From: Octopus vulgaris | Taxonomy: Eukaryota | Length of the DNA stretch: 64,000 nt | Reading direction: 5' to 3' | NCBI GenBank assembly: GCA_951406725.2 | Contig: OX597818.1 | Location: 103,106,001-103,170,000, forward strand | Part shown: positions 15-51,497 of the stretch, piece by piece | Layout of the letters: each line of letters opens with the position of its first letter | How positions within the stretch are numbered: the first letter of the stretch is position 1 | Program-made: the position numbers and the translations under genes | The notes under the pieces: generated by a model | Database searches by the model: none | Seen by the model: the letters and a program-made list of their open reading frames with translations, nothing else | What the model was told of the DNA's origin: nothing

Positions 15-1139
15 TTGTGTTTGAATGAGATTGCCGAAAAAACATCACAAGTGGTCAACACACGATCCGTCAAACAGATTCGTAGCAAGTTGAAACATAT
101 CGAAGTATCTTTCAAACTGATAAGAGGCCATTATGAAAAGCTTCTACATATTTTCACAGTTCAAGAACAACAACAGCTAGAAAATCAGCAGCCACAACAA
201 CAACAACAACAGAATGAGCCACTCCTGGTTCCCAACACAATGGCTGACCCTGACATCGGTCAGGCACAACAACAACAACAACAGCCACAGCAACAAGAAC
301 AACAACAGCCACTCCTCAACTCTAGCTTACTAGACGATTCACTAAATGCCAGTATCTTTTCACCGCTCTCACAGCAACCACCACAATTATCATCATCATC
401 ATCACCACCGCTGCCACCATCGTCTTCTATCACCAAAAATACCAACAGAAAACCAAATAAGAAACCACTGCCCTCTTCCCCCACATCACCACCTCAATAC
501 TACTGCAGTAACAAAAACTTAAAGAAACATAGGAAGCAGAATGCGCCCCCCACGGCACAAACAAGAAATCCCCAAATATGCCGCTATTCACTGCGCCAGA
601 GACTCTGCACAAATAGTGACTGCATCTTCACGCATCTACCCGGCACTAGACGCACTACTGGCCAAGGCCAAAGCACGCATCCCACAATAACATCAACACC
701 ACCAAATAGTAAATCGAAATTCAAAACACACACAACTCGGAGTCCCAAAATCTGCCGGTATTCCCAACGTGAGAGAACATGTCTACTGAGTGACTGTCCC
801 TTCACTCATCTTCCAGGGACCCGACGCACAAACAGAAACGGGGCCTCAAGCCAACACACAAACCTGAATAACAATAAAAATAGAAACACACCATGCTGCA
901 GTAATGCTGGTCCAGTCTTTTCAGGAAGACACAAAAACAACAACAACAAAAGTGGAAACTACAACCCTATCCAACAGTGCAACCACACCTCCAGCCAAAA
1001 ACTGCTCCCTAAGCAGGAAAATTCTTTTTTAGCCATGTTGAACATGGCAAAAGAGATACACAAAAACATTCTAGCCATCACTCAACACCATCCTATGCTA
1101 TTACCCCAGTGCACCAATTCCCCACATTGCTGCCACTAA
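15..1139 (+). CDS. LINE ORF1 protein, 5'-incomplete; Q/P/S-rich linker with two C-x8-C-x4-C-x3-H zinc fingers
   Basis: Frame is open from the window start. Motifs CRYSLRQRLCTNSDCIFTH (579-635) and CRYSQRERTCLLSDCPFTH (753-809). Lies directly upstream of and overlaps the ORF2 frame. Confidence 0.8.
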   Translation: MCLNEIAEKTSQVVNTRSVKQIRSKLKHIEVSFKLIRGHYEKLLHIFTVQEQQQLENQQPQQQQQQNEPLLVPNTMADPDIGQAQQQQQQPQQQEQQQPLLNSSLLDDSLNASIFSPLSQQPPQLSSSSSPPLPPSSSITKNTNRKPNKKPLPSSPTSPPQYYCSNKNLKKHRKQNAPPTAQTRNPQICRYSLRQRLCTNSDCIFTHLPGTRRTTGQGQSTHPTITSTPPNSKSKFKTHTTRSPKICRYSQRERTCLLSDCPFTHLPGTRRTNRNGASSQHTNLNNNKNRNTPCCSNAGPVFSGRHKNNNNKSGNYNPIQQCNHTSSQKLLPKQENSFLAMLNMAKEIHKNILAITQHHPMLLPQCTNSPHCCH

Positions 1140-1870
1140 CACACACAAAAAATCCAAGCCCCCTGCAACAGTCAAAACCAGCCACTACACTAACCTCCAC
1201 ATTCCTACTCAATGCACAAGGTGTCAGCCCTTCCATCAATGCACAAAAATGGAAGGTCCAATTCATTGAAGACTGGGTTGGTAACCATTCACACCACATC
1301 CCTTTCTTCATTCTCACTGAGACCCACCTTGACAACTCCCACTTGGAAGCCGAAGTGAGAGTGAAGAATTTCACAACCATCCGCGCGGATCGTATCGGCA
1401 GGAGGAAGGGTGGAACTGCCATTTTCCTGCATGATTCATTTACGGCAGATGGAAATAGTATATTCTCCAACGGCTACTGTGAATCAGTCACCGTGCACAA
1501 CAAAGCCAATGATCTGACAGTAATTGGACTCTATAGGCCGCCCCAAACACCCATACTGTGCTTTAAAGAATGCCTCAACAGCATTAAGTGCTTTATTCAA
1601 CAGTGCCATTCTAGCAACATACTCATGATGGGAGACTTCAATCTACCCTGTGTTGACTGGACTACAAACTGTTTGAAACCAAGCAATCCCGCCTCAACCG
1701 CTGACAAAGAAGCAGCAGAGTCACTTTTCGACTTTACGAATGAGTTTTTCTTGTCCCAACTTGTCCTTGCACCAACAAGACATCAGAACATTTTGGACCT
1801 AGTGTTTAGTAACCACACTAACACTATACATAACGTTACAGTGGAAAAAAACCCTTCTTTCAGACCATGA
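1013..1870 (+). CDS. LINE ORF2 N-terminal part: AP-like endonuclease domain
   Basis: Motifs LLNAQG, ILTETHL, RADR..RKGGTAIF, LYRPP, MGDFN, NILDLVFSN. Frame open from 1013 (after TAA 1010-1012). The SDH motif falls in the next frame because of an extra A in the run at 1845-1851. Confidence 0.88.
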   Translation, partial: AGKFFFSHVEHGKRDTQKHSSHHSTPSYAITPVHQFPTLLPLTHTKNPSPLQQSKPATTLTSTFLLNAQGVSPSINAQKWKVQFIEDWVGNHSHHIPFFILTETHLDNSHLEAEVRVKNFTTIRADRIGRRKGGTAIFLHDSFTADGNSIFSNGYCESVTVHNKANDLTVIGLYRPPQTPILCFKECLNSIKCFIQQCHSSNILMMGDFNLPCVDWTTNCLKPSNPASTADKEAAESLFDFTNEFFLSQLVLAPTRHQNILDLVFSNHTNTIHNVTVEKNPSFRP

Positions 1871-1871
1871 C

Positions 1872-4145
1872 ATGGTTCTCTGTAACATGAAATTCCACCA
1901 GCCGAAAGCTAATCCTAGTGACCTTCCTCCAGCCCACCCATTTGACAACATGGATCTCCATAAAGCCAACTGGGATGCAATCAGGAACGAGCTATCAAAT
2001 GTTGACTGGTCCTTTACACATACACACATCTCCACCAACCATAAAACATCTTGGCAGATCTTTGTAGACACCGTCACAGACATATGTGCAAAACACTCCC
2101 CACCAAGACCTGTGAACAAAAAGTGCAGAATCCCCCAAAACAGAAAAACCATTATCAGAAAAATAAAAAGAACAAACAATAAAATTAACAAACTAAAGTA
2201 CTGCCAACAGCAACACACACATTCGACGGCTATCGCACTGCTTGAATCCAAAAAATATAACCTCCAACAATGCATGAAGTCCCTCATCAATAACCAAAGA
2301 TCAGCTGAGGAGAAGTGGGCCATTGAAAAAATCAAACTCAACCCCAAAGTGTTCTTTTCATTTGCGAGGAAACGCAGGGTCACTGTCTCCACTGTAGGCC
2401 CTCTAATTGACGAAACTGGCACTCTCCAAGATAATGCCAAATCCATGGCCGAGATACTGCAGAAACAATACTGCTCTGTTTTCAGCAATCCTGATATGGC
2501 CGATCTGGGCTGTATCAGTGATGTCAACCCCCAACACACTATATCGGACATAACGTTTAGTGCCCCTGATGTCTTAGCGGCGATAAACGAAATAAAACAC
2601 AATTCAGCAGTAGGCCCCGATAGGTTCCCTGCTTGTGTCCTGAAGGTGTGTCGACACCAACTTGCATCTCCCCTTGCTAATCTGTGGAGAAACTCACTGG
2701 ATGCTGGCTATATTCCAAAAAACCTTCTGTCCCAGTCTGTTGTCCCAGTTTTCAAAAAGGGAAACAAGTCCCTTGCAGTGAATTACCGTCCGATCTCACT
2801 CACCTCTCATATCATCAAGGTATTTGAGAGGGTGGTGAGATCTCAAATAACCCAATTTCTGGAAAGCAACAGACGGCTGATCTCCAACCAACATGGGTTC
2901 CGTAATGGAAGGGACTGCCTAACGCAGCTCCTGCATCACTTTGAGGACATTTTGAGAGCTTTGGGAGAGGGCTCCAACACCGATGTCATCTACCTTGATT
3001 TCAGTAAGGCCTTCGACAGGGTCGATCACAAGATCCTATTGAAAAAACTATCCAACATTGGTGTCTCTGGAAAGTTACTGAAATGGATTAAGTGTTTCCT
3101 GACAGACATATCTCAACATGTTGTAGTTGAAGGGGTAAGATCAAGCCCAGCCAAAGTCAGTAGTGGCGTTCCGCAAGGCACTGTGCTGGGCCCACTTCTT
3201 TTCATCATTTACATTAATGACATTAATGACATCATCAAGCACAGCAACATAAAAATCTTTGCAGATGACTCCAAGCTACAGAAGGTCATAAATGAGGCGA
3301 GTGACCGGACATGCCTTCAGTCAGATCTACTGGCTGTTATCCAATGGGCAGAAAAAAACAATATGCTGCTGAACGAGGATAAATTTGAGCTAATCCACTT
3401 TGGAAAAGAGGATGCCCTGAAACTCCCATACTCCCTTCCTTCAGGTGAAACTCTCACGGCGTCCAACAACATCAGAGACTTGGGAGTAATTGTGGACAAC
3501 AACGTAAGCTGGGCCACTCATATAAACACCAAAGTTGACATGGCCCGCAGAATGTGTTCCTGGATTCTCAGAACTTTCCAGTCGAGAGATATCCACACCA
3601 TTATCCTTCTCTTCTCCACTTTTGCCCGACCCCACCTTGAATACTGTTGTCCACTGTGGTCTCCCCACACAATACAAGGTATCATAAAAGTCGAAGCACC
3701 TCAAAGGGCAATCACAAAAAAGATAGATGGCATGACAGGCCTCGACTATTGGGGTCGACTAGAAAAGCTAAAACTCTATTCTCTCCAACGTCGTCGTGAG
3801 CGCTACATCATCTGCATGATGTGGAAAATATTCCATCAGCATTGCCCAAATGATGTTGGCATCACCTTTAAGGTACATCCAAGGCTTGGGCCCCGTGCCA
3901 TCCGCCCAAAACAAAAATCGCACTCTCATCTCATAACAACAATACGGCACAATTATTTCACCTCAATTGGCCCCGCTCTCTTTAACATTACACCAAAACA
4001 CATTAAAGCAGAAACTGACCCTATAGGGTTCAAGAAGTCTTTGGACAGATTCCTTCAAGAAATCCCGGATAAACCCCCTACACCCGGATATGTCTCTGTA
4101 AACAATAACTCTCTACTTGAGTGGGCCATAGTGCCCAAATTCTGA
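1872..4145 (+). CDS. LINE ORF2 C-terminal part: reverse transcriptase (CR1/L2 type)
   Basis: YRPISLTS, QHGFR, YLDFSKAFD, SGVPQGTVLGPLLF, FADD, RDLGV, RPHLEYCCPLWSP, LYSLQRRRER; 757 aa with no stops. Confidence 0.95.
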   Translation: MVLCNMKFHQPKANPSDLPPAHPFDNMDLHKANWDAIRNELSNVDWSFTHTHISTNHKTSWQIFVDTVTDICAKHSPPRPVNKKCRIPQNRKTIIRKIKRTNNKINKLKYCQQQHTHSTAIALLESKKYNLQQCMKSLINNQRSAEEKWAIEKIKLNPKVFFSFARKRRVTVSTVGPLIDETGTLQDNAKSMAEILQKQYCSVFSNPDMADLGCISDVNPQHTISDITFSAPDVLAAINEIKHNSAVGPDRFPACVLKVCRHQLASPLANLWRNSLDAGYIPKNLLSQSVVPVFKKGNKSLAVNYRPISLTSHIIKVFERVVRSQITQFLESNRRLISNQHGFRNGRDCLTQLLHHFEDILRALGEGSNTDVIYLDFSKAFDRVDHKILLKKLSNIGVSGKLLKWIKCFLTDISQHVVVEGVRSSPAKVSSGVPQGTVLGPLLFIIYINDINDIIKHSNIKIFADDSKLQKVINEASDRTCLQSDLLAVIQWAEKNNMLLNEDKFELIHFGKEDALKLPYSLPSGETLTASNNIRDLGVIVDNNVSWATHINTKVDMARRMCSWILRTFQSRDIHTIILLFSTFARPHLEYCCPLWSPHTIQGIIKVEAPQRAITKKIDGMTGLDYWGRLEKLKLYSLQRRRERYIICMMWKIFHQHCPNDVGITFKVHPRLGPRAIRPKQKSHSHLITTIRHNYFTSIGPALFNITPKHIKAETDPIGFKKSLDRFLQEIPDKPPTPGYVSVNNNSLLEWAIVPKF

Positions 4146-7708: not shown

Positions 7709-7896
7709 AAACAAGAAAGCACAAAAAAACACAACAACGCGAGGACGTGGAACAAATATTTTTAATGGACGCTCAGGAAAGAAGGAAAGAAGGAGGGTTT
7801 AACGTTTCGAGCGGAGCTCTTCGTCGGAAACATAGGAGAAGAAAAGATCCAGAGAAGGGAAGACAGAGGAAAAAAATCGCCAACGATACACACGTG

Positions 7897-45076: not shown

Positions 45077-47082
45077 GGTAGTTCGCGTAAATGGACATCT
45101 ATCGAGACCTTTCGACATCGCACGTTCGGTTCGACAGGGATGCCCCCTCTCGTCGCTTCTATACGTATTGACTCTCGAGCCACTATTGCGGAAGCTGGCA
45201 ACTCTGAGGGGCATCCCGCGAGAACTGGGATGCGGGACGAGCGTGTCTGCATACGCGGACGACGTCACCGTCATAGTGTCTAGCCACGAGCACATCGAGC
45301 AGGTCGGCGAGACACTGAAAAACTACGAAGCAGTGACAGGAGCAAAAATCAACCGGGAAAAGTCAGTGGGCTTGCGACTAGGCACCTGGAGAAGCAAGCC
45401 CATGCCGTCCACTAGCGCCTCCGTTGTGGGACGCTGGACCGACGGTCCGGTCGAGTTGATCAGGGTCTGGTTCGGTCCGGACCTCCAAGTGGAGAAGAAC
45501 TGGAACGAGATAACGAGTAGGGTGGTCACTCTCGCCCAGCAATGGGCCGAGAGGAAACTGTCCCTAAACGGTCGGGTGGAGGTGGCGAACACGTACATCG
45601 CGTCCGTCATCTAATACCGCCTGACCGTCGTGCCTTGTCCCGACCCTACCATCACCAAACTAGAACGCATTCTCTTTTGCTTCTTGTGGAAAGGATGCAT
45701 CCCGATGGTCAGGCGATCCATTTGCTGTCAACGGCCGTTAAAAGGAGGACTGGGCATGCCGTGGTTGATGATGCGCAGACACGCGCTGAAACTGCGACAT
45801 CTCGGGCTCGTAGACGACGGTGAACAGGTGTGGTCGCCGTTTGTGAGGCACGCTTTCCCGCAGCTCGTCTCCATGAACGAACTGCAATCGTGGATCAAAA
45901 AGAGGCCGAGGAAGGGCGAATGGCACCGCGAGTGTCGCGTTGCTCTCAAGCAACTCTGCCGTCCTGGGTCAACCTTGAGTGACTCCATCACAACCAAAGC
46001 ATTCTATAGGGAATTAGTGGAGGGGAGGTACGACGACGATCTTGGGGCGAAACTGGATGTCAACGAGGAATACCTGACCCGCCTGTTCGGGACGACTTTC
46101 GGGCCAGGGCCCATGGACAACATCCAGAGATCCCTGGCCTGGCAGTTCTACCGAGAAGTGCTACCCGTTCGGGATAAGCTCTACAGACACGGCTCGAGAA
46201 ACACGGGGCCGACCTGCCCGAGATGCGGTCAGAGCGACGAAACCGTTCTGCACGCACTCGTACAGTGTCCAACAATTTCCGACCTGTGGGCTTATGTCGA
46301 ACAACTACTGTCACGTGTGGACGAGTCGGTTTATCAGCTGAGTCTATCGTCAATATTGTCACGCCTCCTTCCTTCAAACGGGAAGGAAGAGCTATTTTCA
46401 TCATCCTTGTGGCTATGGCGAAAGAATGTATCTGGTGGACGCGTCTGAAAGGATTGGAGACAAACACTTTCCTCTCTGGTCAACCTCTCATCAACTTCTT
46501 CAAATACCACTTGAAAAGGAAAGTGAGAGTAGAGAGGCAAGTTTTGTCTAGCGAACGTTTTAAGAAAAGATGGGTGAATGTAGCAAGGATGGCACGTATG
46601 AATGACGAAGCCACCTTGAGCATAATCCTATGAACCCAGAAATTGAAAACAGAGGGTTACACACTTGCAAACAAATGTGGTAACATATAACAATATTGAC
46701 GAAGGTTACCGTGGTCTTTTTCCTAGGCTTTTCTTCCCACGGATAAACCTTACTTGCTTTCCCCTTTACACCATACACATTGACACTGTGATACACGATC
46801 CCTATTGATAATTCCCCCCCCCCTTTTTTCCTCTTTTCTCTTCTTTTTTCATTTTTCTTTTCTTTTTAAACCCTTTTTCTTTTTTTTCTTTTCCTTTTTT
46901 TCCTTTTTTCTTTTTTCTTTTCCTTTTTTCTTCTTTTCTTTTTTTTAGTTCTTTTTTCCATTTTACGATCCCTTTTGATCGAAAACCTACGCCACCTTTT
47001 TTTTTCTCCCCCAAAAGAAAAGCTCTACCTTGTAACTTGTCCCATCTGTGTGTAGCCCTGTGTGGCCAATAAAGAAACTTAA
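45077..47082 (+). mobile_element. 5'-truncated Tx1/L1-clade LINE inserted in (TATC)n
   Basis: RT motifs SVRQGCPLS and AYADD, KINREKS, GGLGMP, zinc knuckle CPRC..ETVLHALVQC; pyrimidine-rich 3' UTR and AATAAA; GC-rich against flanks; TATC arrays at 44842-45076 and 47083-47450. Confidence 0.92.
45078..46633 (+). pseudogene. Disrupted Tx1-like ORF2 (RT C-terminal half plus zinc knuckle)
   Basis: In-frame TAA at 45612-45614 and a frameshift near 46320 split it into track ORFs 45168-45614, 45630-46448 and 46223-46633. Confidence 0.88.
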
Positions 47083-47584: not shown

Positions 47585-47785
47585 CATTGTGTGTACCGTT
47601 GGCGATTTTTTTCCCTCTGTCTTCCGTTCTCTGGATCTTTCCTTCTCCTATGTTTCCGACGAAGAGGTCCGCTCGAAACGTTAAACCCTCCTTCTTTCCT
47701 TCATTCCTGAGCATCCAATAATACTATATTTGTTCAACGTCCTCGCGTTGTTGTTTTTTTGTGCTTTTTTGTTTGGATTAACTTT
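47585..47785 (+). mobile_element. Repeat family H1 with hammerhead-like motif at 47652-47686
   Basis: Homologous to 7705-7900 and 61445-61655. Confidence 0.75.
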
Positions 47786-48033
47786 TTATATATATATATA
47801 TATATAATTAATCAATATAGGGTGGCAAAAAAAAATTTTGTAGAATTCTTTTGCCACCAGCGGCCTAGTGGGAAAAAATTAAATAGTCATAAACCATTTT
47901 TAAGTTCAACATCACAATCAAGGAACGGCCATAATAGGCCATTCACCCACTAGAAATAACAGCCAAAAGCTTTAACCGCAAAATAACATCAATTCCGTAA
48001 ACCAGGAGAAAATTAAAAAACATTTACCCTGTA

Positions 48034-48140
48034 ATTTCTTAGACGATGCACCGTTTCATCTACTGTTTAATGGTAAACTAACCTGATTAAATTAAATCAA
48101 GCCAATCTACCATAGGCCCTTAGATTCATCAGTAAGAAAT
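48034..48140 (-). ncRNA. Type I hammerhead ribozyme, canonical core
   Basis: Reverse complement of 48810-48916. Confidence 0.9.
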
Positions 48141-48809
48141 AGCCAAGTCGGAACAGATATTTTTCACGAGGCATTCTCGTTGCTACCTCGGCAATATCTG
48201 ACCTAAAATTTTCAAATCGTCGCACTCGCGCCAAATTTATCGGCAGCAAATAAATATAAGCCGCCGATTCCATTACGTAATTAACCAGAAAATTCATAAT
48301 TAATCAATATAGGGTGGCAAAAAAAAATTTTGTAGAATTCTTTTGCCACCAGCGGCCTAGTGGGAAAAAATTAAATAGTCATAAACCATTTTTAAGTTCA
48401 ACATCACAATCAAGGAACGGCCATAATAGGCCATTCACCCACTAGAAATAACAGCCAAAAGCTTTAACCGCAAAATAACATCAATTCCGTAAACCAGGAG
48501 AAAATTAAAAAACATTTACCCTGATTGTGATTTACCTTGATTGTGATGTTGAACTTAAAAATGGTTTATGACTATTTAATTTTTTCCCACTAGGCCGCTG
48601 GTGGCAAAAGAATTCTACAAAATTTTTTTTTGCCACCCTATATTGATTAATTATGAATTTTCTGGTTAATTCCGTAATGGAATCGGCGGCTTATATTTAT
48701 TTGCTGCCGATAAATTTGGCGCGAGTGCGACGATTTGAAAATTTTAGGTCAGATATTGCCGAGGTAGCAACGAGAATGCCTCGTGAAAAATATCTGTTCC
48801 GACTTGGCT

Positions 48810-48916
48810 ATTTCTTACTGATGAATCTAAGGGCCTATGGTAGATTGGCTTGATTTAATTTAATCAGGTTAGTTTACCATTAAACAGTAGATGAAACGGT
48901 GCATCGTCTAAGAAAT
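48810..48916 (+). ncRNA. Type I hammerhead ribozyme, canonical core; predicted cleavage after GUC at 48908
   Basis: Stem I atttctta/taagaaat (8 bp); CTGATGA 48818-48824; stem II atcta/tagat, 7x7 internal loop, then about 19-bp extension; GAAA 48893-48896; stem III A-cggtgcatcg-T; C17. Confidence 0.92.
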
Positions 48917-49034
48917 TACAGGGTAAATGTTTTTTAATTTTCTCCTGGTTTACGGAATTGATGTTATTTTGCGGTTAAAGCTTTTGGCTGTTATTTCTAG
49001 TGGGTGAATGGCCTATTATGGCCGTTCCTTGATT

Positions 49035-49072
<38 letters not shown>

Positions 49073-50891: not shown

Positions 50892-50938
<47 letters not shown>

Positions 50939-50939
<1 letters not shown>

Positions 50940-51497
50940 ATAATAAATCTCTGAACGAGGTATAAACAGTAACTGCACGACAATGTGAGATATACTTGCC
51001 ATCTCAATATGGCTAGCCACTAAGGGTGGGTGTTACTATAGCTTGTAGCCCCAGGAGAACATTGTCTCCAGCTGGCTTTAGGCACACTTTCTGTGCCGTT
51101 ATGGTATTTGCAAAGGGAGGTCACCCTTCCCTCGTCAACCTGAGTGATACGCACGGACTGCAGTTTCTAGGTTTTGACCTGTCATCAGCGTACGACAATC
51201 ACCGGTTTTCGATGAAGGGAGGTCCCAATGCAAATTCTGATATTGTTTTTCCAGTAACCTTTCGTCACTGATTTCGAAAAACTGTCTGCAAGCAATAATA
51301 AATCTCTGAACGCGGTATAAACAGTAACTGCACGACAATGTGAGGTATACTTGCCATCTCAATATGGCTAACCACTAAGGGTGAGTGAGGGAATGGTGAC
51401 CTCCCTTTGCAAATACCATAAGGGCACAGAAAGTGTGCCTAAAGCCAGCTGGAGATGATGTTCTCCTGGGGCTACAAGCTACAGTAACGCCCACCCT
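50939..51497. mobile_element. Second hammerhead-containing element: about 355-bp unit, 1.26 copies plus an inverted fragment
   Basis: 50939 repeats at 51294 (to about 51386); 51387-51497 is the reverse complement of about 51025-51134; left end abuts (TA)n. Confidence 0.85.
51151..51193 (-). ncRNA. Minimal type I hammerhead ribozyme
   Basis: Minus strand gtacg-CTGATGA-c-aggt-caaa-acct-a-GAAA-CTGCAG-TC-cgtgc; 5-bp stem I, palindromic loop III, GUC site. Confidence 0.8.

Follow-up and report, generated by a model that had tools for sequence, protein, structure and literature searches.

Non-LTR retrozymes of animals, and their link to Penelope-like elements (PLEs), have already been published (PMC7229834; bioRxiv 10.64898/2026.07.22.740005). 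Self-cleavage and circular RNAs were shown in coral, mussel and axolotl, and PLEs were named as strong candidates (PMC7229834, Cervera and de la Pena 2020); retrozymes have also been linked to pLTRs, and growth of their arrays by unequal crossover has been proposed (bioRxiv 10.64898/2026.07.22.740005; Li, Clavereau and Pollet 2026). An inverted copy together with a tail is described as the insertion pattern characteristic of PLEs (PMC8557442), and a purified PLE protein is reported to cut and extend both strands, with synthesis beginning at two sites within the RNA that delimit the tail (PMC11167929).

The window analysed here is a stretch of 64,000 nucleotides from Octopus vulgaris (contig OX597818.1), in which a 492-nt repeat carries a hammerhead. 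The 492-nt family is likely to be an animal non-LTR retrozyme, judged from its sequence, and thus to belong to a class already known. An initial sequence-only reading had proposed an undescribed system, a claim that is not supported, given what the two retrozyme papers already report (PMC7229834; bioRxiv 10.64898/2026.07.22.740005). A literature search found no description of the 492-nt family itself, although repeat databases and supplements may hold one.

The insertion in the window

The insertion consists of a 720-nt minus-strand arm and a 505-nt plus-strand arm, placed head-to-head inside (TA)n and holding 1.46 and 1.03 units with one difference. It is flanked by a left (TA)n target tract (47786..47803), which is also the end of another small high-copy repeat, and by a right (AT)n tract (49040..49066). 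With unit positions counted from the predicted cut of the hammerhead, the Long-end (L) arm (47804..48523, minus strand) has its outer 3' end at position 238 and its inner 5' end at position 11, and the Short-end (S) arm (48535..49039, plus strand) has its outer 3' end at position 131 and its inner 5' end at position 119. The head-to-head junction between them spans 11 nt (48524..48534), the first 8 bases of which repeat S-end sequence. Between the two fixed ends lies a 107-nt 'tail' (47804..47910, minus strand), on the reading of S and L as probable reverse-transcription starts after PMC11167929. A hairpin lies just inside the L end (47820..47856, minus strand), as a similar one does before the long end of related families, and a 17-nt motif is found about 40 nt inside the S site (47951..47967, minus strand), with a second copy at 48983-48999 on the plus strand.

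The repeat period is 492 nt, and a 228-nt direct repeat within the L arm (47804-48031 and 48296-48523) is 100% identical; the single mismatch between the arms is at 48672. Read round the circle, the longest stop-free frame of the unit is 68 codons, and neither a tRNA gene nor a B box was found in the 492-nt unit. The fold of the whole unit has a z of -6.6 against shuffles, none of which was as stable. The non-coding 492-nt unit and the near-identity of its copies, to about one base, were correctly read at the outset, but the locus is not a simple tandem, the arms standing head-to-head.

Other repeats were observed in the window. The small, very high-copy repeat whose TA tail hosts the insertion (47590-47785) carries a degenerate hammerhead-like motif at about 47655-47690 and has a second copy near 7822 on the minus strand. 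A separate cluster of direct and inverted repeats at 50936-51497 contains a minimal hammerhead-like core at 51188 (minus strand). Translations of 1013-4145 and 45090-46480 (both plus strand) resemble fragments of LINE-like endonuclease and reverse transcriptase (RT), unrelated to the unit.

The ribozyme and its conservation

A type I hammerhead motif is located at 48810..48916 on the plus strand, with a cut predicted after 48908, and a second copy at 48034..48140 on the minus strand, with the predicted cut between 48042 and 48041; both are complete and present as originally claimed. The parts are an 8-bp stem I, CUGAUGA, a domain II of 68 nt whose 7x7 internal loop is separated from the core by 5 bp, GAAAC and GUC, and stem III is self-complementary. 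Folding of the ribozyme gives a z of -5.4, and no shuffle was as stable. The Rfam model Hammerhead_1, a check suggested by the sequence-only reading, aligns to 48812-48914 with 20.5 bits (E = 0.0084) but falls under its gathering score of 34, and a scan of 5 kb did not report the hammerhead. The score below threshold is attributed to the long domain II, and because of it such families are easily missed.

The catalytic fold lies 3.2 kcal/mol above the monomer minimum, which counts against the explanation preferred below. For the 12-nt strand of stem III, self-pairing has an energy of -17.5 kcal/mol. This strong self-pairing and the costly catalytic fold of the monomer suggest that the ribozyme may act as a double hammerhead in tandem transcripts. 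Action as a dimer has been described for amphibian retrozymes (PMC7229834).

The catalytic core shows signs of selection for cleavage, since inherited core changes in the copies compared occur only at the tolerant positions N7 and H17. A comparison of 252 copies from 77 loci shows 7 substitutions at the 11 invariant core positions, in 2-3 insertions and with no identical change shared between insertions. At N7, 22 copies from 7 insertions have C or G, and at H17, 52 copies from 21 insertions have A. Variants common to at least three insertions were found at none of 37 sites in the core and stems I and III, at 6 of 68 domain II sites and at 56 of 385 sites outside the ribozyme, counts that reflect few inherited events and are not independent. 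The domain II pair 425-460 is broken in 112 of 228 copies, and 29 of 252 carry A-C at pair 10.1-11.1. Compensatory change at 425/460 was considered and ruled out; the common domain II variants are not compensatory, which counts against the preferred explanation.

Fixed ends, arms and template

The family was searched for in the 2.8-Gb assembly. The unit returned 1278 candidates, the best 40 of which were scored and gave 217 matches at 95-100%. Genome-wide counts of exact patterns yielded 620 hammerhead pieces, 415 short-end/TA junctions and 681 long-end/TA junctions, with 0 matches for reversed-pattern controls, so that the genome holds at least 681 insertion ends. The unit is contained in 20 of 24 listed sequencing runs, which fall under three organism labels and one further small share. 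The 492-nt repeat is a young dispersed family, and the sequence-only reading of a recently mobile, non-autonomous, hammerhead-bearing element is supported. Nor is the unit single-copy or misassembled, since the family is dispersed over many contigs and present in independent sequencing runs.

For detailed mapping, 82 insertions were assembled from the window, 39 top-scoring loci, 31 hammerhead-pattern loci (C1-C3) and 11 end-pattern loci, a sample biased to loci with a hammerhead or a full unit; 77 of the 82 loci hold the 252 hammerhead copies. At least two units are contained in 43 of 146 arms, and arm length has a median of 658 nt and a maximum of 5156 nt (up to 10.5 units). Three sequencing runs presumed to be RNA have contigs that cover the unit, at less than 1% of the depth of a neighbouring repeat, versus about 30% in a DNA run, contig depth being a poor measure of expression here and poly(A) libraries being expected to miss circles.

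Of 151 arms in the 82 insertions, 146 terminate at S or L. The S ends fall at unit 124-138, mostly 131, and the L ends at 225-248, mostly 235-238, the two sites being 107 nt apart. Head-to-head pairs combine one S with one L end in 61 of 66 cases; the other 5 involve another end, and neither S+S nor L+L was found. In the first 71 loci, 122 of 125 S or L ends adjoin a TA run, and 34 of 56 head-to-head junctions overlap by 1-17 bases as judged from BLAST ends. The outer ends adjoin the TA runs directly, which speaks for an element that lacks an LTR, a primer-binding site and a polypurine tract. Inner ends are spread all round the unit, and 133 of 146 arms span at least one cut site. Two loci (L053, L333) hold single arms flanked by TA at either end, which start 7 nt past the cut site.

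The combination of S and L ends, inverted arms and TA targets is the PLE signature of an inverted copy plus a tail, and the mobilisation by a Penelope-type enzyme that had been suggested for the unit is backed by these same features. Because a PLE protein starts at two tail-bounding RNA sites (PMC11167929), S and L may by analogy be two reverse-transcription start sites, one for each target strand.

Three further non-coding families with the two-arm TA anatomy were sampled (1776, 1419 and 955 candidates), and a fifth family was seen in two loci. A hammerhead with a long domain II occurs in family 2 (L114:6055-6348, L180:958-1690); family 3 (L237, L257) apparently has a variant core and family 4 (L297, L203:5625-5880) a hammerhead core, and family 5 is exemplified by L077:2500-2790. 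The tails of these four related families are about 100-120 nt. The 17-nt motif before the short end and the hairpin before the long end are common to the unit and all four, and the motif is a candidate RT-binding signal. The architecture common to the five families rests on single-sequence folds and motifs, their consensus fold being weak, at -1.79 kcal/mol and with compensatory changes in 3 of its 7 pairs.

The explanation that we consider fairly probable is that of a young, protein-free non-LTR retrozyme, copied in trans by a PLE RT from a predicted circular RNA and giving rise to two-arm insertions in (TA)n. Tandem copies would be transcribed and the ribozyme would release monomers, probably as a double hammerhead via stem III, which a host ligase would then close into 492-nt circles. 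A PLE RT-endonuclease, with the Hydra clade as its most likely source, would bind the structured unit positions 65-238 and cut both strands of a TA tract. At the fixed ends observed, one DNA end would prime at 131 and the other at 238; each RT would travel round the template, the number of laps varying (arms of up to 10.5 units are seen), and then stop. The two cDNA ends would finally be joined head-to-head, often via a few shared bases, as the observed overlaps suggest. Two published results count against this explanation: 1 of 9 predicted Xenopus retrozymes was reported to cleave in vitro (bioRxiv 10.64898/2026.07.22.740005), and cleavage was described as dispensable for PLE insertion in vitro (PMC11167929).

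Both arms of an insertion carry one haplotype. Divergence between units is 0.65% within an arm (310 pairs) and 0.74% across arms (192), compared with 2.4% between insertions (2302). Of 1087 comparisons of common variants between arms, 27 are discordant, and one locus with two insertions accounts for 15 of these; a private variant is found on both arms in 6 of 55 two-strand loci. At L051 two variants differ between the arms, possibly reflecting two templates. All 142 unit-unit junctions are exact at the cut site and of the same length, a regularity that speaks against imprecise template jumping from one linear monomer to another. The haplotype and junction data do not separate a circle from a linear multimer.

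The positions at which arms stop were also profiled, leaving out an arm at a locus edge (L132). Among S arms, stops at 195-241, the region of the other putative start site, are in 2.8-fold excess (17/73, p = 0.0001), most windows of this profile having been picked after the data were seen. Such an excess near the L site would be expected if both RTs share one circle and is suggestive of it; a strong hairpin lies there, and the difference between S and L arms at 195-241 is not significant (p = 0.08). L arms stop 3.2-fold too often at 127-133 (4/70), and both arm types stop at 293-298. Inner ends at the cut site number 11 of 125 in the first 71 loci and 12 of 146 in the 82 insertions, and a hotspot of equal size lies at 198-226.

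A more specific form of the preferred explanation is put forward tentatively, at somewhat short of an even chance: two RTs, primed from both ends of one TA break, would roll round a single 492-nt circle, and in the unit and its four sister families the enzyme would be recruited by a shared RNA domain, not by a copied terminal repeat. If true, this would be genomic evidence for the formation of retrozyme arrays during insertion, through rolling-circle reverse transcription, and a single step would account for both the tail and the inversion of PLEs.

The main alternative, which is unlikely but the best placed of the rivals, is that a genomic array is transcribed into a linear multimer which, only partly cleaved, serves as the template, the PLE machinery being unchanged and circles rare or irrelevant. 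L arms stop 4.35-fold too often 1-15 nt past the cut site (10/70, against 2/73 for S arms), as would be the case if some templates were linear and cleaved or if synthesis stalled at stem I. A linear multimer would also give shared haplotypes and exact junctions, the monomer has a weak stem III and a catalytic fold that is not its minimum, and uncleaved RNA is described as the dominant PLE substrate in vitro (PMC11167929). However, linear arrays would shrink in each generation by random 5' truncation, whereas several different haplotypes include arms of 2.4-5.2 kb, and among the 100 of 620 hammerhead matches listed (C1 to part of C3) no cluster exceeds 8 copies. The putative selection on the core likewise implies that cleavage matters for spread.

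Candidate partners, remaining alternatives and known systems

The genome contains many young intact PLEs, with open frames of 727, 781, 842, 899, 980 and 1312 codons; active Penelope-like families are listed for Octopus vulgaris (PMC13282606), and the words ribozyme and retrozyme are absent from the portions of that paper's text and supplement consulted. In each PLE search the best 63-150 of 6,000-34,000 candidates were scored. All PLE families viewed have two ends in TA. Tails read from their printed ends are about 39 nt (781-codon Neptune-like), 58 nt (1312), 70 nt (727), 70-90 nt (842), 115 nt (980) and 150-160 nt (899 group). The Hydra-like 899, 778, 842 and 980 groups have hammerheads with a domain II of 47-60 nt. 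Long domain II is therefore a local Hydra trait, and the claim that the extension of the unit's domain II is unusual is not sustained against the autonomous Hydra-type PLEs of the same genome.

Several further features of these PLEs were observed. At L191-L205 and L270-L293 there are several young intact Hydra-like PLEs (727, 842, 899, 980 codons), some in full tandem with a 3.6-kb period, with tails far above the 30-40 bp of the literature and with long-domain-II hammerheads. A very young PLE with a frame of about 1312 codons and a 58-nt tail, often in head-to-head pairs, is found at L206-L234. The Neptune-like elements at L100-L108 (781 codons) have an upstream frame of up to 479 codons, and their hammerhead-like motif departs from the usual CUGANGA core.

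The unit gave no significant match to the Neptune-like (781), Hydra-like (899, 778, 842, 980, 727) or 1312-codon PLEs that were sampled; Naiads are described as long inactive in cephalopods (PMC8557442). Because none of the autonomous families compared shares sequence with the unit, a partner can be assigned by resemblance only, and on that basis the 980 group, with its tail length and ribozyme shape, comes nearest. Three apparent leads were rejected. A 53-nt match beside a GIY-YIG fragment (L072) is a separate tiny insertion, and a match of 22 nt between family 2 and the 842 family lies mid-UTR; neither is a partner link. P0001, considered as a Naiad, has a C-terminal nuclease and DKT in its full ORF and is Hydra-like by motif; a Pfam search of P0001 returned no family.

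It is improbable that the unit is the pseudo-LTR of an overlooked autonomous PLE, the insertions being its truncated ends. The hammerhead geometry, tail length and TA targeting do resemble those of local Hydra-type pLTRs, Xenopus retrozymes are reported to match PLE pLTRs (bioRxiv 10.64898/2026.07.22.740005), and each PLE search scored only its best 63-150 candidates. On the other hand, arms span several whole laps of the unit without other sequence, and in 81 fetched loci, which include hammerhead-pattern loci of two chromosomes chosen regardless of score, neither an ORF nor PLE coding sequence was found between or joined to the arms. PLE coding fragments do occur beside the unit in 9 of 70 loci, all outside the outer ends, and in none of 11 further loci. 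The sequence-only reading had noted the absence of a transposase or RT, and no RT plus GIY-YIG ORF between or joined to the arms was found in these 81 loci; its question whether the unit is the terminal repeat of an autonomous Penelope element was answered by no match in the sampled families.

Very improbable is the model, stated for vertebrate retrozymes in bioRxiv 10.64898/2026.07.22.740005, in which single units insert and arrays grow later by unequal crossing-over. Nested differences among the units of the long arrays L046, L049 and L143 are what it predicts, and from these nested variants some long arrays do appear to have been reshuffled later. Yet both opposed arms are multimeric and of one haplotype, with 0.74% divergence across and 0.65% within arms, inner ends lie all round the unit, and the window locus already has 1.46 + 1.03 units with one difference. 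As both arms carry one haplotype, the data favour arrays that mostly arise at insertion. That the inverted tandem is an assembly artefact can be dismissed: inverted repeats in TA tracts do assemble poorly, and the T-tract at unit 206-217 is noisy among copies, but the S+L anatomy is repeated in 61 of 66 pairs, which are spread over many contigs and have junctions and haplotypes of their own.

Under the preferred explanation of a PLE-copied retrozyme, the 492-nt family would be a minimal PLE-priming substrate with two mapped start sites and hundreds of young insertions, and it argues that arrays form mainly at insertion and not by later crossing-over. Its arms are readable as single events, and several intact candidate enzymes are present in the same genome. 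The insertions show unusually clearly how the copying likely proceeds, and the family bears on which enzyme mobilises animal retrozymes, whether circles serve as template and how the tails and inversions of PLEs come about. In L1 twin priming, a single RNA is primed by both target ends and the products are joined through microhomology, which results in an inversion; the position of the second site varies, and there is no overlap between the two parts. In the octopus family, by contrast, both sites are fixed and both arms repeat one unit.

With the animal non-LTR retrozymes described so far, the family shares a non-coding tandem unit of a few hundred bases with one type I hammerhead each, low GC, strong self-pairing, dispersed multimers and co-occurrence with PLEs. 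The unit is longer than the 170-400 nt circles reported in PMC7229834 and within the 51-972 bp range of bioRxiv 10.64898/2026.07.22.740005. It differs in its 68-nt domain II, below the Rfam threshold, and in that no matching autonomous pLTR was found among the families sampled. Inverted arms, two fixed ends or tails, (TA)n targeting and octopus are absent from the main texts of both papers, as far as these were consulted.

PLEs as described in PMC8557442 have in common with the family (TA)n targets, hammerheads, an inverted 5'-truncated partner and a tail on one end, and the local PLEs with a DKT motif and C-terminal nuclease come close with a domain II of 47-60 nt and tails of about 70-160 nt. 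Unlike these elements, the unit has no ORF and no significant match to their ends, and its 107-nt tail contrasts with the 30-40 bp given for PLEs in general (PMC8557442). Non-autonomous PLE derivatives with multicopy head-to-tail insertions are represented by the Chlamys MRC1-type elements (PMC8557442). Poseidon PAc of Anolis (Frangieh et al. 2024, PMC11167929) is alike in its two internal start sites that bound the tail, its AT-rich targets and the cutting and extension of both strands. PAc, however, is autonomous with start sites inside its ORF, whereas those of the unit would lie in a non-coding structured region, and it is for the 492-nt family that strict pairing of one S with one L end is seen in the genome.
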